A stretch of 15,313 nt of DNA from an uncultured Pirellulales bacterium (GCA_964481585.1 CAYZVT010000072.1:1-15313), one strand, 5' to 3'. Counted from the stretch's first letter, positions 3,708 through 12,153 are shown. Notes: generated by a model not told the origin, from the letters alone. Made by a program: numbers and translations.

Positions 3708-4781
3708 ATGGCCTATTCTGTGCTCAGCCCGTACCTTGTGCCGGCCGGATCAAAGAAGCGGGTCAACCTCGGCGATGGGTTCATTCTGCACAACATCCAG
3801 CGGCTGCTTGCTCCGCACGAGTGCCGGTTCGTCTTCACGACCCGCGCGCCGCTGAGCGAGCGACAGATCGAGTGCATCAACGACACCGACGCGCTGATTC
3901 TGGCCGGGGCGAACCAGCTCGACGATCACTTTACGCTCTACCCGACTTGCACGGCTGCCGATCTCGCGCGAATCAAAGTGCCGATCGTTCCCTTCGGCAT
4001 TGGCATCAATGGCGAGCCGGACACGGCGCGAAAAATGAGCGACGCGACGCGGGCCGTGCTCGCAGCCATTTTTGAACGGGTCCGCTATACGTCGTGGCGC
4101 TGCGACGACTCGCGGCAGTATCTCGTCGATCAAATGCCCCGGCACGCCGAGCAATGTCTCATGACCGGCTGCCCGGTCCAATACCGCGACGAAATCCTCG
4201 CCCAAACGCCCTTCCAGACGAGCGAAGCCACGGTGGTCGCCACGATCACCGAGCGGGGCGATTTTTGGGAGCGGGAAAAAACCACGCTCGACTTCCTCGC
4301 CGAGCGCTTCGCCCGCTCGCGCCGTATTCTCGCGCTCCACCAAGATTTCACTTCCAGCGGTCGCCGCCCCGGCGCGATGCGGCGGCTCGCAACTTCGCTC
4401 AAACCCCACGCGCCGCAGCGGCTGCACGATTACGCGCGCGCCCTGGGCTTTGAAGTCTACCGGCCCGCCTCGGCCGAGGAATGTTTGGCCGTCTACGCCA
4501 AGTGCGACTTGCACCTGGGCAGCCGGCTGCATGCCCATCTGCACTTCCTCAGCCGCGCCAAGCGCTCCTTCCTCACTCCGGTCGACGGCCGCAGCGCCGG
4601 CTTTGCCCGCACGTTCGGCTTTCCGCTCTGCGACTACCGCCGCCTCGATGCGCATTTTGATTACGACTTTGAGCGCTACGCCCGCCGCGTCCGCGAAACG
4701 TTCGCCACGATGACCGCCTTCACCGATTACCTGAAGCGCGACGTGCTCCGCACGCCGGCCGCGATGATTAGGGCAGCGTAG
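3708..4781 (+). CDS. polysaccharide pyruvyl transferase family protein (CsaB/WcaK-like)
   Basis: ATG at 3708, stop TAG at 4779-4781. The N-terminal motif KKRVNLGDGFILHNIQRLL resembles the G-x-NxGDeai signature. The C-terminal CDLHLGSRLHAHLHFLSRAKRSFLTPVDGRSAGFARTFGFP resembles the RLHa-I-A...P-i-Y-K motif of PS_pyruv_trans. The match is from memory of the family pattern, not a search. Confidence 0.6.
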   Translation: MAYSVLSPYLVPAGSKKRVNLGDGFILHNIQRLLAPHECRFVFTTRAPLSERQIECINDTDALILAGANQLDDHFTLYPTCTAADLARIKVPIVPFGIGINGEPDTARKMSDATRAVLAAIFERVRYTSWRCDDSRQYLVDQMPRHAEQCLMTGCPVQYRDEILAQTPFQTSEATVVATITERGDFWEREKTTLDFLAERFARSRRILALHQDFTSSGRRPGAMRRLATSLKPHAPQRLHDYARALGFEVYRPASAEECLAVYAKCDLHLGSRLHAHLHFLSRAKRSFLTPVDGRSAGFARTFGFPLCDYRRLDAHFDYDFERYARRVRETFATMTAFTDYLKRDVLRTPAAMIRAA

Positions 4782-4790
4782 CAGCACGAC

Positions 4791-4820
4791 GGGTGCCACT
4801 CTCTGGCCTGTCCAGCAGTG
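4791..4820 (+). repeat. palindromic repeat module H1, forward orientation, degenerate copy (GGGTGCCACTCTCTGGCCTGTCCAGCAGTG)
   Basis: Read directly. Consensus is GGGTGCC ACTGCTGG CTTGT CCAGCAGTG. This copy has an extra base and 2-3 substitutions in the left arm. It starts 10 nt after the stop of the pyruvyl transferase gene. Confidence 0.8.
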
Positions 4821-4909
4821 CTTCCAAACGGGCGTGCGTAATTCTCTCTCGATTCTGTAGCAACGCGTTCCGGGGAAGCGAATCACTTGGAGGCGACGGC
4901 AAACGACGG

Positions 4910-4938
4910 CACTGCTGGACCAGCCAGCAGTGGCACCC
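4910..4938 (-). repeat. palindromic repeat module H1, reverse orientation (CACTGCTGGACCAGCCAGCAGTGGCACCC)
   Basis: Reverse complement of the consensus with one mismatch. A second GGCACCC follows at 4945-4951. It lies 30 nt from the nth stop. Confidence 0.85.
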
Positions 4939-4968
4939 GTATTCGGCACCCACTCTGCCGACCTGGCG

Positions 4969-5640
4969 TTAGCGGTGGCTCGTCACTCCCACTTGCCGGC
5001 ACATGTCGAGCACGGGGCAGGTCGAGCATTTGGGCTGGCGGCCGGTGCAGACGTGCTTGCCGAACGGGACGAGTAGCCGGTTGATCTCGATCCAGTACGC
5101 GCGCGGCAGTTTTTCATCGAGGGCGTGCATCGTCTTCTCGGGAGTCGAGGCCGAGATGTAGCCCCAGCGATTCGTGACGCGGTGGACGTGGATATCGACG
5201 CCGATGCTCGGCTCTCCGCAGGCGATACCGAGCACCAGATGGGCACACTTCGGACCCACGCCCCGGAAGGAGAGCAACACCTGCTCGTCGCACGGCACGG
5301 TGCCGCCGAACTCCCCGACCGCGCGACGGGCAATCTCCCGAATCTGCCCCGCCTTCGCCTCGTGAAACGAGCACGCCCCAATCAGCCGATCAATCCGCCG
5401 CTCCGACAGCTTCGCCACCTCCGCCGGCGTCCGCGCCACCTCAACCAGCGCCCGCGCCGTCGGCACCGTCACCTCGTCCCGCGTGCGAATCGAAATCATG
5501 CACGCCACGAGCTGCTCAAACGCCGAATCAAACCCCTCGGCCGCCAATTCAAACAGCGCCGCCTTCGGAAACGGCCGAACCGCCGCGCGGATTCGCTTCA
5601 GCGCCGCATCAATATCAAACCGCCGCTTCCGAGCGGGCAT
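4969..5640 (-). CDS. nth: endonuclease III (HhH-GPD base-excision DNA glycosylase with 4Fe-4S cluster)
   Basis: ATG at 5640. A helix-hairpin-helix GPD region (LLSFRGVGPKCAHLVL) is present. The C-terminal Cys cluster CTGRQPKCSTCPVLDMC fits C-x6-C-x2-C-x5-C of EndoIII/MutY. The length of 223 aa is typical for Nth. Confidence 0.9.
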   Translation of the reverse strand: MPARKRRFDIDAALKRIRAAVRPFPKAALFELAAEGFDSAFEQLVACMISIRTRDEVTVPTARALVEVARTPAEVAKLSERRIDRLIGACSFHEAKAGQIREIARRAVGEFGGTVPCDEQVLLSFRGVGPKCAHLVLGIACGEPSIGVDIHVHRVTNRWGYISASTPEKTMHALDEKLPRAYWIEINRLLVPFGKHVCTGRQPKCSTCPVLDMCRQVGVTSHR

Positions 5641-5674
5641 GAGGTGTCTCGGAGTTAGTTGCTAAGTCGCGGGA

Positions 5675-5698
5675 CACTGCTGGCTTGGCCCAGCCGTG
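5675..5698 (-). repeat. degenerate solo copy of the H1 hairpin (CACTGCTGGCTTGGCCCAGCCGTG)
   Basis: Shares CACTGCTGGCTTG and a decayed right arm. It lies between the nth start and the end of the 87-aa membrane gene. Confidence 0.5.
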
Positions 5699-5718: not shown

Positions 5719-5982
5719 TCACGGCAACGCCTCGGGCTTGTCGGTGGGGCCGTTGCGTTCTGCATTGAAGTCCTCTTCATCAGCAACCTGCCACTCCCAC
5801 AGCCCCCCTACGAACAGCGACAGAAGCGCACAGATACCGAGCTTGAGCGGCCAATCGTCCCACCAGTTGTTCCACCAAAGCACCGAAGCATAGAGGCACG
5901 TCCCGACCAGACTGGTCACGAAGGCGTGCGCGACCGTGCTACGCCACGTGGCTTTCGGATTGGTCTTGCCTAATAAGCCCAT
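5719..5982 (-). CDS. small hypothetical membrane protein (87 aa, 2 predicted TM segments, Trp-rich)
   Basis: ATG at 5982. Two hydrophobic stretches (VAHAFVTSLVGTCLYASVLWW and LKLGICALLSLFVGGLW). It is co-directional with nth downstream and another tiny membrane ORF upstream. Confidence 0.5.
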   Translation of the reverse strand: MGLLGKTNPKATWRSTVAHAFVTSLVGTCLYASVLWWNNWWDDWPLKLGICALLSLFVGGLWEWQVADEEDFNAERNGPTDKPEALP

Positions 5983-6064
5983 CGGCTAACGAGTGTTCTC
6001 CACTGTGGACGGCAACTCTCCCCCAGTCCCTCCCTGCAAGCGAGGAGGACTGCAAAATTCGTCC

Positions 6065-6241
6065 TCACCGCAGCCCTTCTTCCGGCGATCGGCGTTCGCC
6101 GAGCGGGAAGTTTTCTTCCGGCTGCCGGCGTTTGCGGGTGAAGATGACCAAGAGAATCACGCCGCCGATGATCGGCAGCAGGACCAAGAGCGCGAACAGC
6201 CCGACGAGGATGATGAGTTCGAGCGGCCCGAATCCGACCAT
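6065..6241 (-). CDS. tiny hypothetical membrane protein (58 aa, single TM)
   Basis: An internal ATG at 6241 (MVGFGPLELIILVGLFALLVLLPIIGGVILLVIFTRKRRQPEE...) is preceded by AAAGGAA 7-12 nt upstream. The longer ORF-track version (to 6451) reads through two copies of the palindromic repeat and is an artefact. Confidence 0.4.
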   Translation of the reverse strand: MVGFGPLELIILVGLFALLVLLPIIGGVILLVIFTRKRRQPEENFPLGERRSPEEGLR

Positions 6242-6264
6242 GCCAATTCCTTTCGTGCTACGAT

Positions 6265-6293
6265 GGGTGCCACTGCTGGCTTGTCCAGCAGTG
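6265..6293 (+). repeat. palindromic repeat module H1, forward orientation (GGGTGCCACTGCTGGCTTGTCCAGCAGTG)
   Basis: Exact consensus copy. The 9-bp arms CACTGCTGG / CCAGCAGTG around a 5-nt centre form a perfect hairpin. Confidence 0.9.
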
Positions 6294-6374
6294 CCGTCAA
6301 CGAGCCTCACGGTGGCGCGTCTTGCCACGTCGTTCTCAGGCCAAGCAAATTGCCCCGGCATTGTCTGTCCGTCA

Positions 6375-6403
6375 CACTGCTGGACAAGCCAGCAGTGGCA
6401 CCC
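6375..6403 (-). repeat. palindromic repeat module H1, reverse orientation (CACTGCTGGACAAGCCAGCAGTGGCACCC)
   Basis: Exact reverse complement of 6265-6293, 81 nt away. Confidence 0.9.
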
Positions 6404-6432
6404 GGGGCACGGGCGAGACGCCCGTGGCACCC
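6404..6432 (-). repeat. palindromic repeat module H2, reverse orientation (GGGGCACGGGCGAGACGCCCGTGGCACCC)
   Basis: Hairpin CACGGGCG-AGA-CGCCCGTG followed by GGCACCC, immediately abutting the H1 copy. Its reverse complement occurs at 9738-9762. A third GGCACCC follows at 6447-6453. Confidence 0.8.
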
Positions 6433-6459
6433 TTCTTCCGTCACTGGGCACCCCGCGCG

Positions 6460-8130
6460 TTAGCTCGTTTCTTCCTTTGCTTCGTGCGGTTGTTCGACCG
6501 GCTTGACGACTTGGCTCGGTTCGACAACGCGGGGTGCGACCGGGGCGGCGCCGTTTTCTTTGGCGGCTGGGGCCTCGCCGTCGCCGCCGATTTTGACGAG
6601 CGACTCGGGCAGTTCCACGCCGCCGATGTCCTTGAGCACTTGCATCATCGGCGGCATCGTGCCGGCCATGTTTTGCAGGAAGTTGGCGGTTGAGGACTTG
6701 CCGTTGGAGTTGCCTTCCCAGACGACGACCTTGTCGAACTTGATGTTCGAAATCGCCTTGGCGCTGGCTTCGGCCAGGTTGTCGAGGTGTTCGAGCATGA
6801 GCAGTTGGAACGCCTCTTTCGCGCCGCCGCAGGCGGTGATGATCTGCTGGAGACCTTCGCCCTTCTTGGCGAGAATTTCGTATTGGCCGCGAGCTTCGGC
6901 TTCGAGCTTGGCGAAAATCGCTTTCGCCTCGCCTTCGGCTTCGATGCGGCGGCTTTCGGCGGCGGCTTCGGCTTCGACCAAGGTGCGTGCCTTTTGGGCT
7001 TTGGCCGGAGCTTCCAGTTCCGCCCGCTGCTCGGCTTCGACCCGTTCGGCCTCGGCCAGCGCGGCTTTGGCCATGGCGCGGTTTTGGGCTTCGAGCACGG
7101 CCGCTTCCGCTTCGCGCTTGCGGCGTTCGCCGATTTCGTAAGCCTCGGCTTTTTTCACGAGCAACTGCGCCTGCGAAGCGGCGATGACCGCCTGGGCCTC
7201 GTTTTCGCCTTCGATGGCGAGGGCGTCGGCATCGGCCAGCCGGATGCGCATCTTCTGTTCGGCGTCTTTCACCTGCGCATCGCGCTCGAAGGCGGCCGTC
7301 TGCTCGCCGACGCTCTGTTCTTTTTCCAGTTCCGCGATCCGCACCGCCTGTTCGCGCTCGGCTTCGCGGGTGCCGATGTCGCGGAGCTTGTTGGCGTTGG
7401 CGACTTGAATCGCGCGGTCGCGGTCGGCCTCGGCCACGCGCGTCTCGCCCATCCGCTCCTGTTCGGCCACGTCGCCCCGCGCCTGCTGCACGGCCTGGCT
7501 GGCGGCTTTCTTGCCGATCGCGTCGATATAGCCCGACTCGTCGGTGATGTCGGTGATGTTGACGTTAATCAGCACCAGACCGATCTTTTTCAGTTCCGGC
7601 TCAAGCGAGTTTTGAATGTGTTCGAGGAACGTGTCACGGTCGCGGTTGATGTCTTCGATCCGCATCGAGGCGATGACCTGCCGCAGTTGGCCGAAGATGA
7701 TTTCCTCGGCTTGCTTGCGGATCTCGTCGGTCGTCAGCCCCAGCAGACGAATCGCCGCGTTCTGCATCACGTCGGGGCTGGTGCCAATTGCCACGGTAAA
7801 GACGCTCGGCACGTTGACGCGGATGTTTTCCGCCGACAGCGCGCCGCGCAGCGGAATCTCGATCTGGATCGGCTCCAGACTGAGGTAGGCGTAGTCCTGA
7901 ACCAGCGGCACGATGAACCGCGCGCCGCCATGCACGCAGCGGGCCGTGTTCTGACCGCCGATCTTGCCGTAGATGATGAGCACGCGGTTGCTCGGGCAGC
8001 GCTTGTAGCGCGACGTGAGCAAACGCAGCACGCTGCCGATCAGGATCGCGGCCACGACGAGAATAATCGCCCAGTAAACCAGACCGCCAGCGAGGTCTGA
8101 GACGAGATCGGCAACGAGTAAATTAAGCAT
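6460..8130 (-). CDS. flotillin / SPFH (band-7) domain protein, YqiK/FloT-like
   Basis: ATG at 8130 (MLNLLVADLVS...). The ORF-track start at 8172 is a GTG and would overlap the upstream gene by 50 nt. An N-terminal TM helix is followed by an SPFH core and a long Glu/Ala-rich coiled coil (AEAERVEAEQRAELEAPAKAQKARTLVEAEAAAESRRIEAEGEAKA), typical of flotillins. The start overlaps the stop of the upstream NfeD-like gene (ATGCTTAA). Confidence 0.9.
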   Translation of the reverse strand: MLNLLVADLVSDLAGGLVYWAIILVVAAILIGSVLRLLTSRYKRCPSNRVLIIYGKIGGQNTARCVHGGARFIVPLVQDYAYLSLEPIQIEIPLRGALSAENIRVNVPSVFTVAIGTSPDVMQNAAIRLLGLTTDEIRKQAEEIIFGQLRQVIASMRIEDINRDRDTFLEHIQNSLEPELKKIGLVLINVNITDITDESGYIDAIGKKAASQAVQQARGDVAEQERMGETRVAEADRDRAIQVANANKLRDIGTREAEREQAVRIAELEKEQSVGEQTAAFERDAQVKDAEQKMRIRLADADALAIEGENEAQAVIAASQAQLLVKKAEAYEIGERRKREAEAAVLEAQNRAMAKAALAEAERVEAEQRAELEAPAKAQKARTLVEAEAAAESRRIEAEGEAKAIFAKLEAEARGQYEILAKKGEGLQQIITACGGAKEAFQLLMLEHLDNLAEASAKAISNIKFDKVVVWEGNSNGKSSTANFLQNMAGTMPPMMQVLKDIGGVELPESLVKIGGDGEAPAAKENGAAPVAPRVVEPSQVVKPVEQPHEAKEETS

Positions 8131-8698
8131 GGGTGGTCCCCGCGGTTTCAGGTGCAGGCTCGACTTCCACACGGTCAGGCCCGAGCACCCCTACGACAAG
8201 AATACGACTTCCCGTTGGCAAACGTCCTCCGGACGTAATCGCTTCGCACTCGACGAGCCGGTTTTGCAAGGTGAGATGAACCTTGCCGGCTCCCTTTTGC
8301 TCGGCGGGAATCGGCACATAGACGACCCCCTCGAGGCCGACCGCGCGGGCGAGCCGCACGGTGCCATCGGCGTTGAGCTGGTGCATCGCCTGCATCAAAA
8401 AGTAGACGCCATACATCGCTCCCAACGCGCCGGCCACGGCCACGAATAGCGGCCACGGATCGTCGAAGTTGGAAGCCAGCGCCGCTTTGCCGAACAGCCC
8501 AAAGAACGTCAGACCGATCACGAGCGTGCGGAACGACAGCACGCCAAAGATCCAGCTGGAGCCGTGATGGTCGACGTCGCCTGTGTCGGCGGCCGCGTCG
8601 AGATCGCCGTCGGCCGTTTCGTCGTCGCCGCCGATGAGCGACTGCACCAGCAACAGCGCGCCGCCGAAGAGGGCACAGAGCAGAAACAGCGTGTTCAT
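8123..8698 (-). CDS. NfeD-like / YqiJ-family membrane protein (flotillin partner)
   Basis: ATG at 8698. Hydrophobic N-terminal half with several TM segments, an acidic stretch (GGDDETADGDLDAAADTGDVDHH) and a C-terminal soluble beta-rich domain (GAGKVHLTLQNRLVECEAITSGGRLPTGSRILVVGV...) consistent with the NfeD OB-fold. It sits immediately upstream of and overlaps the flotillin gene, the conserved yqiJ-yqiK arrangement. Confidence 0.8.
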   Translation of the reverse strand: MNTLFLLCALFGGALLLVQSLIGGDDETADGDLDAAADTGDVDHHGSSWIFGVLSFRTLVIGLTFFGLFGKAALASNFDDPWPLFVAVAGALGAMYGVYFLMQAMHQLNADGTVRLARAVGLEGVVYVPIPAEQKGAGKVHLTLQNRLVECEAITSGGRLPTGSRILVVGVLGPDRVEVEPAPETAGTTHA

Positions 8699-8804
8699 CG
8701 CGAGCGGTCCTGCGAATTTCTAAGGGGGCGTGAACGCTTCAACGGCCTATTCGCTCGCCGGCGGCCGAGCTTGGAAAAAGTGCGGCTCGATTTTCGCTTA
8801 TCTT

Positions 8805-8821
8805 CCCCCGCTCGGCGGGGG
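8805..8821. other. GC hairpin CCCCCGC-tcg-GCGGGGG in the nfeD / DUF72 divergent intergenic region
   Basis: 7-bp perfect stem. GGCACCC follows 17 nt downstream (8839-8845). Confidence 0.3.
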
Positions 8822-8937
8822 ATGTCAAACCGATTCGCGGCACCCCCGATCGGCAGCAGCCGTTGAGGCGGTGGTCCGCCGCTGCTGGCAGCGAAATAAT
8901 AGCACGGGCAGCCGCACGGGATGGGCGACCGACAATT

Positions 8938-9681
8938 ATGTCTTATATCCGGATCGGCACGTGCGGGTTTTGCACCCGTCAGGCCGAGTTCTTCCGCCGC
9001 TTTCGGCTCGTCGAAATCCAGCAGACGTTCTACCAACCGCCCCAGCTCAAGACCGTCGAGCGGTGGCGCGAGGCGGCGCCGGAGTCGTTTCGTTTTGCGC
9101 TGAAGGCGTGGCAAGCAATCACCCATCCCGGCGGCTGCCCGACTTTTCGCAAGTCGAAATTGAGCGAAGCCGAGCGCCGCGAGTGCGGCTCGTTTCGTGA
9201 CACGCCGGTCGTGCGTTCCGCTTGGGAGACAACGCGCGTGCTTGCCCGCGCGCTGCGGGCAGAGTGGGTGATTTTTCAGTGCCCGCCGACCTTTCGGCCG
9301 ACGAAGGAGAATCAAGCCAATCTGGAAGGCTTCTTGGGCTGGGCGGAGCGCGACCAGATGCGCTTCGGCTGGGAGCCGCGCCACCCGGACTGGAACGCGG
9401 AACTCGTGCGCGAGCTATGCGCGCGGCTGGAATTGATTCACGTCGTCGATCCGCTCTACGAAGATTCGGCGTGGGGCACGCCGCGCTACTACCGGCTGCA
9501 CGGCGAACCGCGCGGGACCTATCGCTGGGAGTACCGCTACCGCTACAGCGACGAGGAGCTGACGCGCGTCGCGGAAAAATGCCGCGAAGCGGAGACCTAC
9601 TGTCTGCTGAACAACGACCGCATGTGCGACGACGCCGCACGGCTGGCGGCGCTGCTGGGCCAAGAACTGAGCCAAACCTAA
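8938..9681 (+). CDS. DUF72 (UPF0759, YecE-like) family protein
   Basis: ATG at 8938 (MSYIRIGTCGFCTRQ...FY...LKTVERW...FRFALKAWQAITH). The IGTSGW/F start and the FY...F.FALK pattern match DUF72. The ORF-track start at 8863 is a TTG and adds a non-conserved extension. Stop TAA at 9679-9681. Confidence 0.75.
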   Translation: MSYIRIGTCGFCTRQAEFFRRFRLVEIQQTFYQPPQLKTVERWREAAPESFRFALKAWQAITHPGGCPTFRKSKLSEAERRECGSFRDTPVVRSAWETTRVLARALRAEWVIFQCPPTFRPTKENQANLEGFLGWAERDQMRFGWEPRHPDWNAELVRELCARLELIHVVDPLYEDSAWGTPRYYRLHGEPRGTYRWEYRYRYSDEELTRVAEKCREAETYCLLNNDRMCDDAARLAALLGQELSQT

Positions 9682-9685
9682 GCCT

Positions 9686-9708
9686 GGCCGGTGGGGGGCG
9701 GGGGCGCA
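9686..9708 (+). repeat. G-rich post-stop motif GGCCGGTGGGGGGCGGGGGCGCA (copy 1)
   Basis: It begins 5 nt after the DUF72 stop. A near-identical motif, GGCCGGGTGGCGGGGGCGCA, begins 24 nt after the stop of the last gene (15294-15313). Confidence 0.6.
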
Positions 9709-9737
9709 TCGCACAAGCGGAAGCCCCCGGAAACGCC

Positions 9738-9762
9738 GGGTGCCACGGGCGTCTCGCCCGTG
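9738..9762 (+). repeat. palindromic repeat module H2, forward orientation (GGGTGCCACGGGCGTCTCGCCCGTG)
   Basis: Reverse complement of 6404-6432 apart from the loop triplet (TCT versus AGA). The GGGTGCC flank is identical to the H1 flank. Confidence 0.8.
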
Positions 9763-9890: not shown

Positions 9891-9919
9891 GGGTGCCACT
9901 GCTGGCTTGTCCAGCAGTG
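9891..9919 (+). repeat. palindromic repeat module H1, forward orientation (exact consensus)
   Basis: Identical 29-mer to 6265-6293. Confidence 0.9.
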
Positions 9920-10056: not shown

Positions 10057-10085
10057 CACTGCTGGACAAGCCAGCAGTGGCACCC
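10057..10085 (-). repeat. palindromic repeat module H1, reverse orientation (exact)
   Basis: Identical 29-mer to 6375-6403. It ends 4 nt before the kinase stop codon (10089-10091). Confidence 0.9.
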
Positions 10086-10088
10086 AAT

Positions 10089-11537
10089 TTAAGCCTGGGC
10101 GGTGGCGGTGAGCTTGGCGAGCGCTTCGCGCAGTTGCCGCAGCTTGATCGGCATGGTGGCGACCAAGCGGTGCCCGTTGCTCTGGGCGCTCGACTTCCAG
10201 TTGCGCTGGCGTTCGCTCAGCAGCAGCAGCGCGGGCACGTTTTTGAGATCGTTCCGCTGCCCAAAATCGTTGAAGGCCTCGACCGCGCTTTCGCCGAGCA
10301 TGCCGCTGCTAAAGAGCACCACGTCGGCCACTTGGCTATCGTCGGCAAAGCGCTGGGCGGCGCGCTGCGGATCGCTCGTGACGAGCACGCGATAGCCGCT
10401 CTTTTTGAGGCTGTCGCGAAAGAGGTTTTGCATCTTCACGTCGCCTTCGACGACCATCACCGTGCGCTGCTGGCTGTTGTCGCCCTTCAAGGCGCCTTCG
10501 CCCGCCTCTTCGGCGGCGCTTTCGCGCGCGAGCACGCCGCGCAGATCGGTCGCCAACTCGCCCGGCGTCTGATAGCGGCGGTCGGGATCGAAGCTGAGCG
10601 CCTTTTTGACGACCAGGGCAATCGAGTGCGGCAGATCCGGCTTGACCTGCAAGATCGGCGGGATTTCGCGGAAGCGGCTTTTGCGCAGCCGCTGCGAGCG
10701 CTCCCGCGTCTCGACCAACGGCGCTTGCCCGGTGAGCATGTGGTAGTAGATGCAGCCGGCGAAAAAGATGTCGCTACGGGCATCGCCTTTACGCACGCCG
10801 GTCGAGCGTTCCAGTCCGGCGTAGTCGATCGCGCGGGGGTTGTCGCTCTTTTGGATTACCTCGTCCGTCGCGTTCAGATCGGTGCCGGCCAAGCCGAAAT
10901 CGACCAGCTTCGCCTGCCCGAGGCTGGAAACGAGCACGTTCGACATTTTTAGGTCGCGGTGCGAGATGCCCCGGCCGAAAGCGTAGTCAAGTCCGCCGGC
11001 GATATCGAGCATCAGCCGCGTCGCTTCGAGTGGCTCGCAGCTTTTGCGGATGCGGACGAATTCGAGCAGATTGCGCCCCTCGACGAACTCCATGACCAGG
11101 TAATGGTTGTTCCCCTGCGAATCGACTTCGTAGATCGGGACGATGTTCGGATGCCGCAAGCCCTGGCACATCACCCCTTCGCGGTGGAAGCGGTCGGCTT
11201 CTTCTTTGAGTTCGCTGTAGCGTTTGCGAAGTACCTTGACGGCGACTTGTTTCTTGCCGAGCCGGTCGGTGGCCCGGTAGACGCGCGCAAAGGTGCCGGT
11301 GCCCACGAGATAGAGAACTTTGTAGTCCCCGTAGTAGAACGTGGTGCGGTCGCGGGCAATCAGATGCTCGATCTGGTAGAAGGTGAGCAAGTCGCGGCGG
11401 AGGAGCAACTGGCGGAACTCGTCCAGGCTGACGTTCTGGCTGCCGAACTCGCCCCAGATCTCGCGGAGCTGCGTCTCGTCGAGCAGATTCAGGTTCAGCG
11501 CATGCTGAGCCAGTTCCTCTGCTGACGTAATGGCCAT
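10089..11537 (-). CDS. Ser/Thr protein kinase (Hanks type) fused to a C-terminal receiver-like (pseudo-REC) domain
   Basis: ATG at 11537 (MAITSAEEL...) is preceded by AGGGAG 4 nt upstream; an alternative ATG lies at 11558. Kinase motifs are present: VGTGTFARV (G-loop), VAVK, HRDLKMSNVLV, DFGLA, SDIFFAGCIYYHMLTG, DPDRRYQT. The C-terminal 120 aa (TVMVVEGDVKMQNLF...YRVLVTSD...ADVVLFSSGMLGE...VPALLLLSERQ...MPIKL) has the REC topology, with the conserved T/S and K present. The phospho-acceptor Asp is replaced by Ser (VLFSSGM where VLLDxxMP is expected). Confidence 0.85.
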   Translation of the reverse strand: MAITSAEELAQHALNLNLLDETQLREIWGEFGSQNVSLDEFRQLLLRRDLLTFYQIEHLIARDRTTFYYGDYKVLYLVGTGTFARVYRATDRLGKKQVAVKVLRKRYSELKEEADRFHREGVMCQGLRHPNIVPIYEVDSQGNNHYLVMEFVEGRNLLEFVRIRKSCEPLEATRLMLDIAGGLDYAFGRGISHRDLKMSNVLVSSLGQAKLVDFGLAGTDLNATDEVIQKSDNPRAIDYAGLERSTGVRKGDARSDIFFAGCIYYHMLTGQAPLVETRERSQRLRKSRFREIPPILQVKPDLPHSIALVVKKALSFDPDRRYQTPGELATDLRGVLARESAAEEAGEGALKGDNSQQRTVMVVEGDVKMQNLFRDSLKKSGYRVLVTSDPQRAAQRFADDSQVADVVLFSSGMLGESAVEAFNDFGQRNDLKNVPALLLLSERQRNWKSSAQSNGHRLVATMPIKLRQLREALAKLTATAQA

Positions 11538-11547
11538 GGGACTCCCT
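11538..11547 (-). promoter_or_regulatory. AGGGAGTCCC immediately 5' of the kinase ATG (11537)
   Basis: Reverse complement of the plus strand GGGACTCCCT. Same 10-mer as 12556-12565. Confidence 0.45.
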
Positions 11548-11701
11548 TTACGAATCATTTTTCCGATTTGCCTGCTCCCCTAGATCGTATCCCGGATGCT
11601 CATCGAGAGAAGTTCGCCGCGTACTTGTTAATTTATTCCGGCGGCGCGCCGGCCACAATTGATTCGCCGAGCCGGGGGGCGAGATTGCCCAGCCGGGCGG
11701 C

Positions 11702-11780
11702 TTTTTCCCCGCTCTGGCAGCCGCTGGGGAAAAGCCAGCACCCTGCTACCAGTTCCGGTAGCAGGGTGCGCCGGGGTTTT
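11702..11780. terminator. twin GC-rich hairpins with flanking T runs; candidate bidirectional intrinsic terminator / insulator between the coiled-coil ORF and the kinase gene
   Basis: Hairpin A is TTTTTCCCCGC-loop-GC(T)GGGGAAAA (11702-11733). Hairpin B has a perfect 12-bp stem, CACCCTGCTACC-agttcc-GGTAGCAGGGTG (11739-11768), followed by CGCCGGGGTTTTGGG. On the minus strand hairpin B is followed by CTGGCTTTTCCCC. Both T-tracts are short, so this is not a textbook terminator. Confidence 0.35.
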
Positions 11781-11865: not shown

Positions 11866-12153
11866 TTACGCCTCGTATTCTTCGAGCTTTTGGCGGTAGT
11901 CGTCGCGCTCGCGGCGGGTCGCTTCCAGGTCGAACATGAGATACTTCATGTCGAGCCGCAACTGGCCGAGCGCATCTTGCACCAGCGTCAGAATCCGCCG
12001 CCGCCGCTGCGTGCTCTCCGCCACCCGATCCACCAGCGGTTCGAGCGAGTCGCGGTATTGAGCCGGCAGGGCCGCGATCGCCGCTTGCAGGCGGAGGAAG
12101 TCGGCGGGCAGTTGTTCTTGAGCGGTCGGGGCAGGACGCGAGGTGTCGTTCAT
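11866..12153 (-). CDS. small hypothetical protein, predicted coiled coil (95 aa; possible N-terminal extension to 12228)
   Basis: The ATG at 12153 is preceded by GGAGAA 9-14 nt upstream. An alternative upstream ATG at 12228 is preceded by AAGGG. The C-terminal half is charged and helical (LDMKYLMFDLEATRRERDDYRQKLEEYEA). No recognisable family. Confidence 0.45.
   Translation of the reverse strand: MNDTSRPAPTAQEQLPADFLRLQAAIAALPAQYRDSLEPLVDRVAESTQRRRRILTLVQDALGQLRLDMKYLMFDLEATRRERDDYRQKLEEYEA

Follow-up and report, generated by a model that had tools for sequence, protein, structure and literature searches.

Tagged hairpin repeats of a Pirellulales contig: probable REP subfamilies with relatives beside RAYT genes

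Gene context and anatomy of the repeats

A contig of an uncultured Pirellulales bacterium (GCA_964481585.1, CAYZVT010000072.1:1-15313), analyzed over its full 15,313 nt and referred to below as the window, is GC-rich (65%) and encodes a LamG-domain protein, a polysaccharide pyruvyl transferase, endonuclease III, flotillin, a DUF72 protein, and a Ser/Thr kinase. Between these genes lie short hairpins of two types, H1 and H2, both attached to the heptamer GGCACCC (GGGTGCC on the opposite strand; hereafter the tag), which a sequence-only reading had described as a conserved 7-mer combined with interchangeable stem-loops. The analysis reported here indicates that H1 and H2 are probably two subfamilies of repetitive extragenic palindromic (REP) elements of a Pirellulales chromosome, of the kind linked to REP-associated tyrosine transposases (RAYTs). 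Nine hairpin copies and two orphan tags were detected in the 15.3 kb, all 11 pieces being located between open reading frames (ORFs) and most of them 3-56 nt past gene 3' ends.

The H1 hairpin is CACTGCTGG-ACAAG-CCAGCAGTG, with a 9-bp stem and a 5-nt loop, perfect in intact copies, and the H2 hairpin is CACGGGCG-AGA-CGCCCGTG, with a perfect 8-bp stem and a 3-nt loop; the observation that two stem types form perfect hairpins on the same GGCACCC was thus confirmed. With the tag placed 3', H1 reads (G)CAC-TGCTGG-ACAAG-CCAGCA-GTG-GCACCC (five intact and two decayed copies, the latter at 4791-4820 and 5668-5698) and H2 is (G)CAC-GGGCG-AGA-CGCCC-GTG-GCACCC (two identical copies). The block common to both comprises the hairpin foot CAC...GTG and GCACCC, usually together with GCAC 5' of the stem, and reads 5'-GGGTGC-CAC(stem) on the opposite strand. 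The first G of GGCACCC is itself the final base of the stem, and the core is not GGCACCC alone, as had been proposed, but the foot GTG followed by GCAC(CC), for which related elements carry CCAC instead of GCAC. Each unit is 25-30 nt long, with a GC-rich stem that starts with CAC and finishes with GTG, and the hairpins have folding energies of -11 to -13 kcal/mol. When the tag is read 3', the loop is always ACAAG-like in H1 or AGA in H2, and the units are therefore oriented, because these asymmetric loops keep one orientation relative to the tag. Both H1 and H2 have the form of a broad-sense REP, namely a short GC-rich palindrome of ~20-40 nt with a loop of 2-5 nt, and within the window they are repeated and extragenic. 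At gathering thresholds, no Rfam family matched anywhere in the window.

The six H1 copies that carry a tag are arranged as three inverted pairs, tags outward, and the spacers of these pairs (81, 89, and 137 nt) show no mutual alignment or similarity. The first pair consists of a degenerate minus-strand copy at 4791-4820 (tag GGGTGCC at 4791-4797, then CACTCTCTGG-CCTGT-CCAGCAGTG, with a 2-nt insertion in one arm), located 9 nt past the stop of the plus-strand gene 3708-4781, and an intact plus-strand right partner at 4910-4938 (CACTGCTGG-ACCAG-CCAGCAGTG followed by GCACCC), which lies 30 nt past the point where the minus-strand endonuclease III gene (4969-5640) ends. The degenerate copy folds at -5.6 kcal/mol, no better than shuffles. 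An orphan plus-strand GGCACCC at 4945-4951 follows 6 nt past the tag of the right partner. A decayed solo H1 was found on the minus strand at 5668-5698 (CACTGCTGG-CTTGGC-CCAGCCGTG), in the interval that separates the endonuclease III gene start from an ORF at 5719-5982; it has one arm mismatch and a 6-nt loop and has lost its tag. This copy had not been listed by the sequence-only reading. The H1 copies number seven rather than five or six, five intact and two degenerate.

The second pair is formed by a minus-strand copy at 6265-6293 (left partner; GGGTGCC followed by CACTGCTGG-CTTGT-CCAGCAGTG), 23 nt upstream of a small minus-strand ORF at 6065-6241, and a plus-strand copy at 6375-6403 (right partner, followed by GCACCC), and its 81-nt spacer is unlike those of the other pairs. 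A plus-strand H2 copy (CACGGGCG-AGA-CGCCCGTG followed by GCACCC) occupies 6408-6432, with the hairpin at 6408-6426 and GGCACCC at 6426-6432; it folds at -13 kcal/mol (z -4.0), stands head-to-tail 4 nt past the right partner, and is separated by 27 nt from the 3' end of the minus-strand flotillin gene (6460-8172). GGGG (6404-6407) stands between the H2 hairpin and the H1 tag ending at 6403. A second orphan GGCACCC on the plus strand, at 6447-6453 with CACTG in front, probably represents what is left of an element or a partial copy of one. The other H2 copy, in the opposite orientation on the minus strand at 9738-9762 (GGGTGCC followed by CACGGGCG-TCT-CGCCCGTG), is found 56 nt past the stop of the DUF72 gene (8863-9681, plus strand) and 128 nt before the left partner of the third H1 pair (9891-9919, minus strand), whose right partner at 10057-10085 (plus strand, followed by GCACCC) is reached across the 137-nt spacer and stops 3 nt short of the 3' end of the minus-strand Ser/Thr kinase gene (10089-11558). 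The positions given previously for H2, its reverse complement, and the extra GGCACCC copies, as well as the distance of 128 nt, were all correct.

Over-representation and copying

GGCACCC occurs 13 times on both strands of the window, compared with 3.1 +/- 1.8 in dinucleotide shuffles, none of which reached 13 (0/200), and GTGGCACCC occurs eight times against 0.085 expected, the shuffle maximum being 1. Moreover, a perfect hairpin of 7 bp or more adjoins seven of the GGCACCC sites, as opposed to 0.01 in shuffles, and the eighth GTGGCACCC site abuts the degenerate H1 at 4791-4820. The association between tag and hairpin is real and highly non-random. On the other hand, the argument of the sequence-only reading that copying should yield identical stems, and that copying was hence not at work, fails because the stems are identical within each subfamily, exactly as copying predicts: the five intact H1 copies share their arms, the two H2 copies are identical, and 22 bases of H2 are the same in ~17 species.

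The H2 hairpin beside RAYT genes

In a Kiritimatiellia metagenome-assembled genome (MAG; L003), a six-frame motif scan identified an HUH/Y1 protein that scores 84.6 bits on the NCBIfam model NF047646 'REP-associated tyrosine transposase' (cut-off 80) and also passes Pfam Y1_Tnp with 31.9 bits. Both sides of this RAYT gene are occupied by 63-bp arrays, in which GTGG-CACGGGCG-TCC/TCT-CGCCCGTG alternates with the inverted form CATGGGCA-GGA-TGCCCATG-CCAC. The hairpin of these arrays is the H2 hairpin, and only the stem-adjacent base differs, CCAC in the arrays versus GCAC in the window (GTGG versus GTGC on the tag strand). The same stem flanks RAYT genes in L003, L013, L021-26, L121, and L122, appearing around the RAYT genes of L021-26 as GTGG-CACGGGCG and as CATGGGCA with CCAC or CTAC tags, and a RAYT of Phycisphaerales (L020) has GTGG-CATCGGCA-TCCC-TGCCGATG, a hairpin of the same design, nearby. 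The alternating 63-bp arrays are present in L003 and L013 but not in the window. The L003 RAYT has 4524 homologues at E <= 1e-5, many of which are named 'REP element-mobilizing transposase RayT' by their source, and the called ORFs of RAYT homologues often extend into the repeats, giving rise to the recurrent peptides GTGVPPV and HGQDGHAT. In another locus (L123), two RAYT paralogues 2 kb apart (1678-2307 and 4001-4930) carry different repeat sets, GTGG-CACGGCCA arrays versus GTAG-CACGGCCG arrays; the tag variant thus tracks the RAYT gene copy, which suggests that each RAYT copy has its own tag and stem.

Copies with the GTGC tag of the window were also found beside RAYT genes. None of 80 RAYT loci from metagenomes has a GGGTGCC-tagged hairpin beside the gene. 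A chimeric protein query composed of peptides encoded by GTGC-tagged H1/H2 and the conserved RAYT N-terminus recovered RAYT N-termini with 'ATGVPPV' in front. In L121, caGGTGC-CACGGGCG-TCC-CGCCCGTG is located directly upstream of a RAYT gene with one internal stop and a GGTGG-tagged copy lies downstream, and in L122, GTGC-CACGGGCG-TCC-CGCCCGTG is paired with a GTAG-tagged partner upstream of the RAYT gene. Similarly, one dimer of a Planctomycetaceae locus (L007) combines a GTGG-tagged hairpin with a GCACCC-tagged H2. Because they co-occur in these three loci, GTGG and GTGC tags are variants within one system. The H2 hairpin is exactly identical to hairpins that flank RAYT genes elsewhere, GTGC-tagged copies included. 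A candidate H1-like stem beside a RAYT gene, the P0101 peptide 'STAVPAV', was dropped, as the DNA reads GTAG-CACGGCCG.

Several of these RAYT genes have conspicuous neighbors. In the Kiritimatiellia MAGs L003 (186-4313, minus strand) and L013, the RAYT gene and the 63-bp (21-codon) REP arrays lie in frame within an MmeI-like restriction-modification gene, one open frame of 1375 codons spanning all three. In L021-L026 (~6001-6681), the RAYT gene is found between hsdM and hsdS of a type I restriction-modification operon, and in L121 (9900-10840) it separates hsdS from hsdR and is bordered on each side by a copy of ~55 bp from the 5' end of hsdR. A general link between RAYT and restriction-modification genes was rejected, as only 2 ResIII matches were present in 109 neighboring ORFs of 80 other RAYTs. 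In L020 (607-4159), the RAYT gene adjoins phage-like genes (SU10 major capsid protein and SPP1-type portal).

Constant tags and compensatory stem changes

In the 80 metagenomic loci, taken whole with up to 3 kb on either side of the gene, perfect hairpins whose orientation was given by a flanking tag had GTGG (69), GTAG (45), GTAA (20), GTAC (17), or GTGC (4), and the stems were diverse (CACGGGCG, CATGCGCA, CACGTGCG, CACCGGCG, CATGAGCG, and others). Covariation was assessed at every GT[AG]G-CA[CT] anchor that lay no more than 400 nt from a RAYT core, whether or not a 3' arm was present. The 8-3-8 structure was formed in 63% of cells at anchors compared with 31-44% in slid controls, and 82 double-sided changes were counted, compared with 39.8 +/- 5 in shuffles, none of which reached 82 (0/500). 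Stems in the RAYT-flanking family thus vary in a compensatory manner under a constant tag, and the stem covariation that had been proposed as a check on the sequence-only reading was borne out in these related repeats. Taken together, the tag tally and the covariation in the 80 loci make a constant tag with many compensatorily evolving stems the rule of this REP/RAYT family.

Relatives in other genomes

The H2 pattern with any loop was searched in one genome per species and retrieved 19 stretches from ~17 species, nearly all Planctomycetota plus two Kiritimatiellia. Chance would give ~0.07 matches for its 22 fixed bases, and identity extends across these 22 bases in ~17 species; the loops vary (AGA, AAA, GCA, GGA, CGA, ACA, and others), and the arms and tag are fixed. 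In Pirellulales and other planctomycete DNA, the same tag is found on at least four stem types: H1 (CACTGCTGG), H2 (CACGGGCG), H3 (CACTGGCG), and H4 (CACTGG). H3, CACTGGCG-NNN-CGCCAGTG, bears the same tag as H2, from which a single compensatory base pair separates it. H4, CACTGG-CAAG-CCAGTG followed by GCACCC, occurs in the closest relative (L038, flotillin 84% identical), where two copies (7021-7036 and 7254-7269) are paired in inverted orientation, with ~20 nt of interior flank also common to the two arms. The idea of a conserved flank with different stems therefore holds in view of these at least four stem types and of the compensatory stems in RAYT relatives; however, H1 and H2 are separate subfamilies, and their stems are not swapped.

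No such elements were found in two further relatives (L039 and L040, 21 kb each), and a comparison of orthologous sites via the flotillin gene of L038-L040 was uninformative, as synteny stops at the flotillin operon. Tagged H1 was detected as single copies in 11 stretches of a viral collection, on phage-like contigs; a RAYT search in that collection found none, and BLAST of H1 against plasmids and phages returned nothing relevant.

In approximately 10 of 35 planctomycete copies, the tag, or the 3' arm together with the tag, is re-iterated 6-40 nt downstream, often as a clean partial tandem duplication (L005, minus strand, ~2170-2760; L015; L018; L004; and positions 4945 and 6447 of the window). 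Replication slippage and repeated cleavage and rejoining are both possible routes to such re-iteration. Partial tandem repeats trail many copies (L004, L005, L015, and L018), and the orphan GGCACCC copies at 4945 and 6447 probably arose in this way.

Interpretation and alternative explanations

In REP elements, a hairpin carries a guide tetranucleotide at its foot, and RAYT/TnpAREP reads both (PMC6006769, PMC3733652). The guide tetranucleotide is needed for cleavage by TnpAREP, several REP families coexist per genome, and inverted dimers with spacers of 20-100 nt are known (PMC6006769, PMC3733652); dimers with inverted tags on the outside are the commonest type (PMC3733652), and all three H1 pairs have this form. 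By analogy with characterized REPs, the single-stranded hairpin of H1 or H2 with its unpaired foot tag would be the substrate of a RAYT (TnpAREP), an HUH/Y1 enzyme that would bind the hairpin, read the tag as a guide, and cut and rejoin single-stranded DNA, and this activity would seed and maintain copies between genes. The tag and the hairpin foot are most likely what a RAYT would read on single-stranded DNA, and the stems would represent diverged lineages of one element type in which tag and foot have been kept, rather than interchangeable parts. A RAYT of this genome may be expected to act on both H1 and H2, and presumably one enzyme serves the two; copies may also act in mRNA 3' untranslated regions, in stabilization or termination, as is known for REPs. 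Given the constant tag and varied stems across the 80 RAYT loci, the notion of a recognized core with a stem-loop as structural partner, right in spirit, is essentially the established REP/RAYT model and not a new principle.

Several observations weigh against the assignment of H1 and H2 to RAYT-type REPs. A canonical GT[AG]G tag within 0-2 nt of the hairpin foot is absent, all intact window copies reading GGGTGC-CAC, and GTGC is rare among the tag-orientable hairpins of the 80 RAYT loci (4/166, some possibly due to chance). No RAYT gene was found on the 15.3-kb contig or on the planctomycete loci with GCACCC-tagged elements that were examined, and H1 was seen beside no RAYT among the loci examined, its assignment relying on the shared tag and foot. 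Moreover, the three H1 pairs have spacers that do not resemble one another, unlike classical REPIN (hairpin-forming REP doublet) elements, and binding and cleavage of a single-stranded tag with hairpin by a RAYT are known only for E. coli TnpAREP (PMC6006769). Because no RAYT gene was found on the contig and the GCACCC loci examined, H1 was not seen beside a RAYT, and the tag is not GT[AG]G, H1 and H2 are best filed as a variant rather than as canonical REPs. One tentative scenario, which we consider possible but rather doubtful, is that the guide tag switched in Pirellulales from GT[AG]G to GTGC and was lengthened to a fixed GGGTGC(C), so that a putative matching RAYT would read only the tag and the CAC/GTG foot, leaving the inner stems and loops of H1-H4 free to diverge under one enzyme.

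The position of the elements 3-56 nt past gene 3' ends is also what would be expected if the hairpins acted primarily at the RNA level, as 3'-untranslated-region stabilizers or factor-dependent terminators selected in place without a mobilizing enzyme, GGCACCC being an RNA or protein signal. Judging from the positions, the transcript of the nearest upstream gene would read 5'-GGGUGCC-hairpin in 8 of the 9 copies, the stability of the hairpins (-11 to -13 kcal/mol) would suit such a role, and REPs are known to stabilize mRNA and to terminate transcription (PMC6006769). However, no T-run follows any H1 or H2, the 3' flanks being GCACCC or mixed sequence, and none of them was reported by a terminator scan. 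Furthermore, this explanation does not account for identical 22-30-nt sequences at unrelated loci, in ~17 species and on phage-like contigs, or for the arrays around RAYT genes; it appears unlikely as the primary explanation, and an RNA-level role can coexist with that of a REP instead of replacing it. An ordinary intrinsic terminator, by contrast, seems to be present at 11738-11769, where a hairpin with a perfect stem of 13 bp (GCACCCTGCTACC-agttcc-GGTAGCAGGGTGC) is accompanied by a T-run on the minus strand, downstream of a small minus-strand ORF (11866-12153), even though its stem ends read GCACCC/GGGTGC.

Two further explanations take the inverted arrangement of the H1 pairs as their starting point, and both are very improbable. 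The outward-facing tags form an inverted repeat with orphan tags nearby, and GGCACCC/GGGTGCC might thus be a half-site for a duplex DNA-binding regulator or nucleoid protein, as the sequence-only reading had suggested, the pairs being operators and the hairpins incidental. Nevertheless, the distance between the two tags of a pair is variable (130-190 bp) and not that of an operator, only one tag accompanies the solo H2 at 9738, and the sites are found at gene 3' ends and not at promoters; the pattern is one oriented tag beside a hairpin, as in REPs, and the compensatory stem changes of the related family point to a folded single strand. Alternatively, the H1 copies of the three pairs, inverted repeats of 30 nt with 81-137 bp between them, could be the termini of miniature inverted-repeat transposable elements moved by a DDE transposase, with H2 unrelated; the whole pair folds into a long hairpin (-63 kcal/mol, z -8.5). 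Yet this fold comes entirely from the two 30-nt ends, the interior of each pair is dissimilar to those of the others, H1 also occurs solo (5668-5698 and the single copies in viral contigs), and H2 has the same tag unpaired. A DNA-uptake-sequence reading, under which each arm would be a 9-mer in its own right, was rejected as well: the arm 9-mer never occurs alone in the window but only within H1 copies, the single-arm matches at 4812 and 5675 belonging to the two degenerate ones, and loop orientation is tied to the tag. RAYT-type REP subfamilies thus remain the favored explanation.

Comparison with known systems

Like GTAG-tagged REPs (E. coli REP/bacterial interspersed mosaic elements [BIMEs] with YafM), H1 and H2 are GC-rich hairpins of 20-40 nt with a short loop and an unpaired tag at one foot only, extragenic and multi-copy, with frequent inverted tags-outside dimers and several subfamilies per genome, and H2 is identical to RAYT-flanking hairpins. 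They differ in the tag (GTGC, extended to GGGTGC, for GT[AG]G), in the lack of a RAYT on the contig, and in their unrelated dimer spacers. The alternating REP clusters with conserved linkers that define BIMEs are absent from the window, which holds a single head-to-tail H1+H2 junction (6375-6432). GTAG-tagged REP families GTAG-1 to GTAG-24 were described by Di Nocera et al. 2013 (PMC3733652), and a classification by Quentin et al. 2018 (PMC6006769).

A closer counterpart of H2 is provided by GTGG-tagged REPs of the Planctomycetes-Verrucomicrobia-Chlamydiae (PVC) superphylum (GTAG-20 of Opitutus terrae, PMC3733652, and the RAYT arrays of Kiritimatiellia, Phycisphaerales, and metagenomes), which share with it the stem CACGGGCG...CGCCCGTG, a 3-nt loop that is pyrimidine-rich on the tag strand, the CAC/GTG foot, and often GG before the tag. 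GTGG and GTGC versions are found in the same dimer (L007) or at the same RAYT locus (L121). In the Pirellulales elements the stem-adjacent base is C instead of G and is fixed, and H1 additionally departs from the PVC elements in its 9-bp stem and 5-nt loop and in not being seen beside any RAYT examined. The subterminal hairpins of IS200/IS605 likewise consist of a hairpin with a 5' guide tetranucleotide handled by a Y1 HUH enzyme on single-stranded DNA, but H1 and H2 enclose no transposase gene and are far shorter than an insertion sequence. REPINs, reportedly described by Bertels and Rainey in 2011 in Pseudomonas fluorescens, resemble the H1 pairs in that two inverted REPs are able to fold as one long hairpin; however, REPIN doublets replicate as a unit with a shared spacer, whereas the spacers of the H1 pairs (81-137 nt) are unrelated.

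Significance

What is new here is modest: Pirellulales REP subfamilies H1-H4 that share a non-canonical GGGTGC tag, a one-base variant and not a new kind of element. A literature search on the exact repeat sequences found no paper. The elements explain many spurious small ORFs in planctomycete MAGs, and probably many contig breaks, and should be masked in annotation; when translated, they appear as HCWTSQQWHP, LLDKPAVAP, and GATGVSPV, and in relatives as GTGVPPV and HGQDGHAT. These findings probably extend the REP/RAYT system, which has been studied mostly in Proteobacteria, to Pirellulales, with four stem types sharing a tag whose stem-adjacent base is not that of GT[AG]G, the motif supposed to define REPs. 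If a cognate RAYT is found, ready-made variants would be at hand for testing enzyme recognition, and if the switch to GTGC did take place, these repeats would provide a natural experiment that could show what a RAYT reads in a REP and how guide specificity and enzyme co-evolve.

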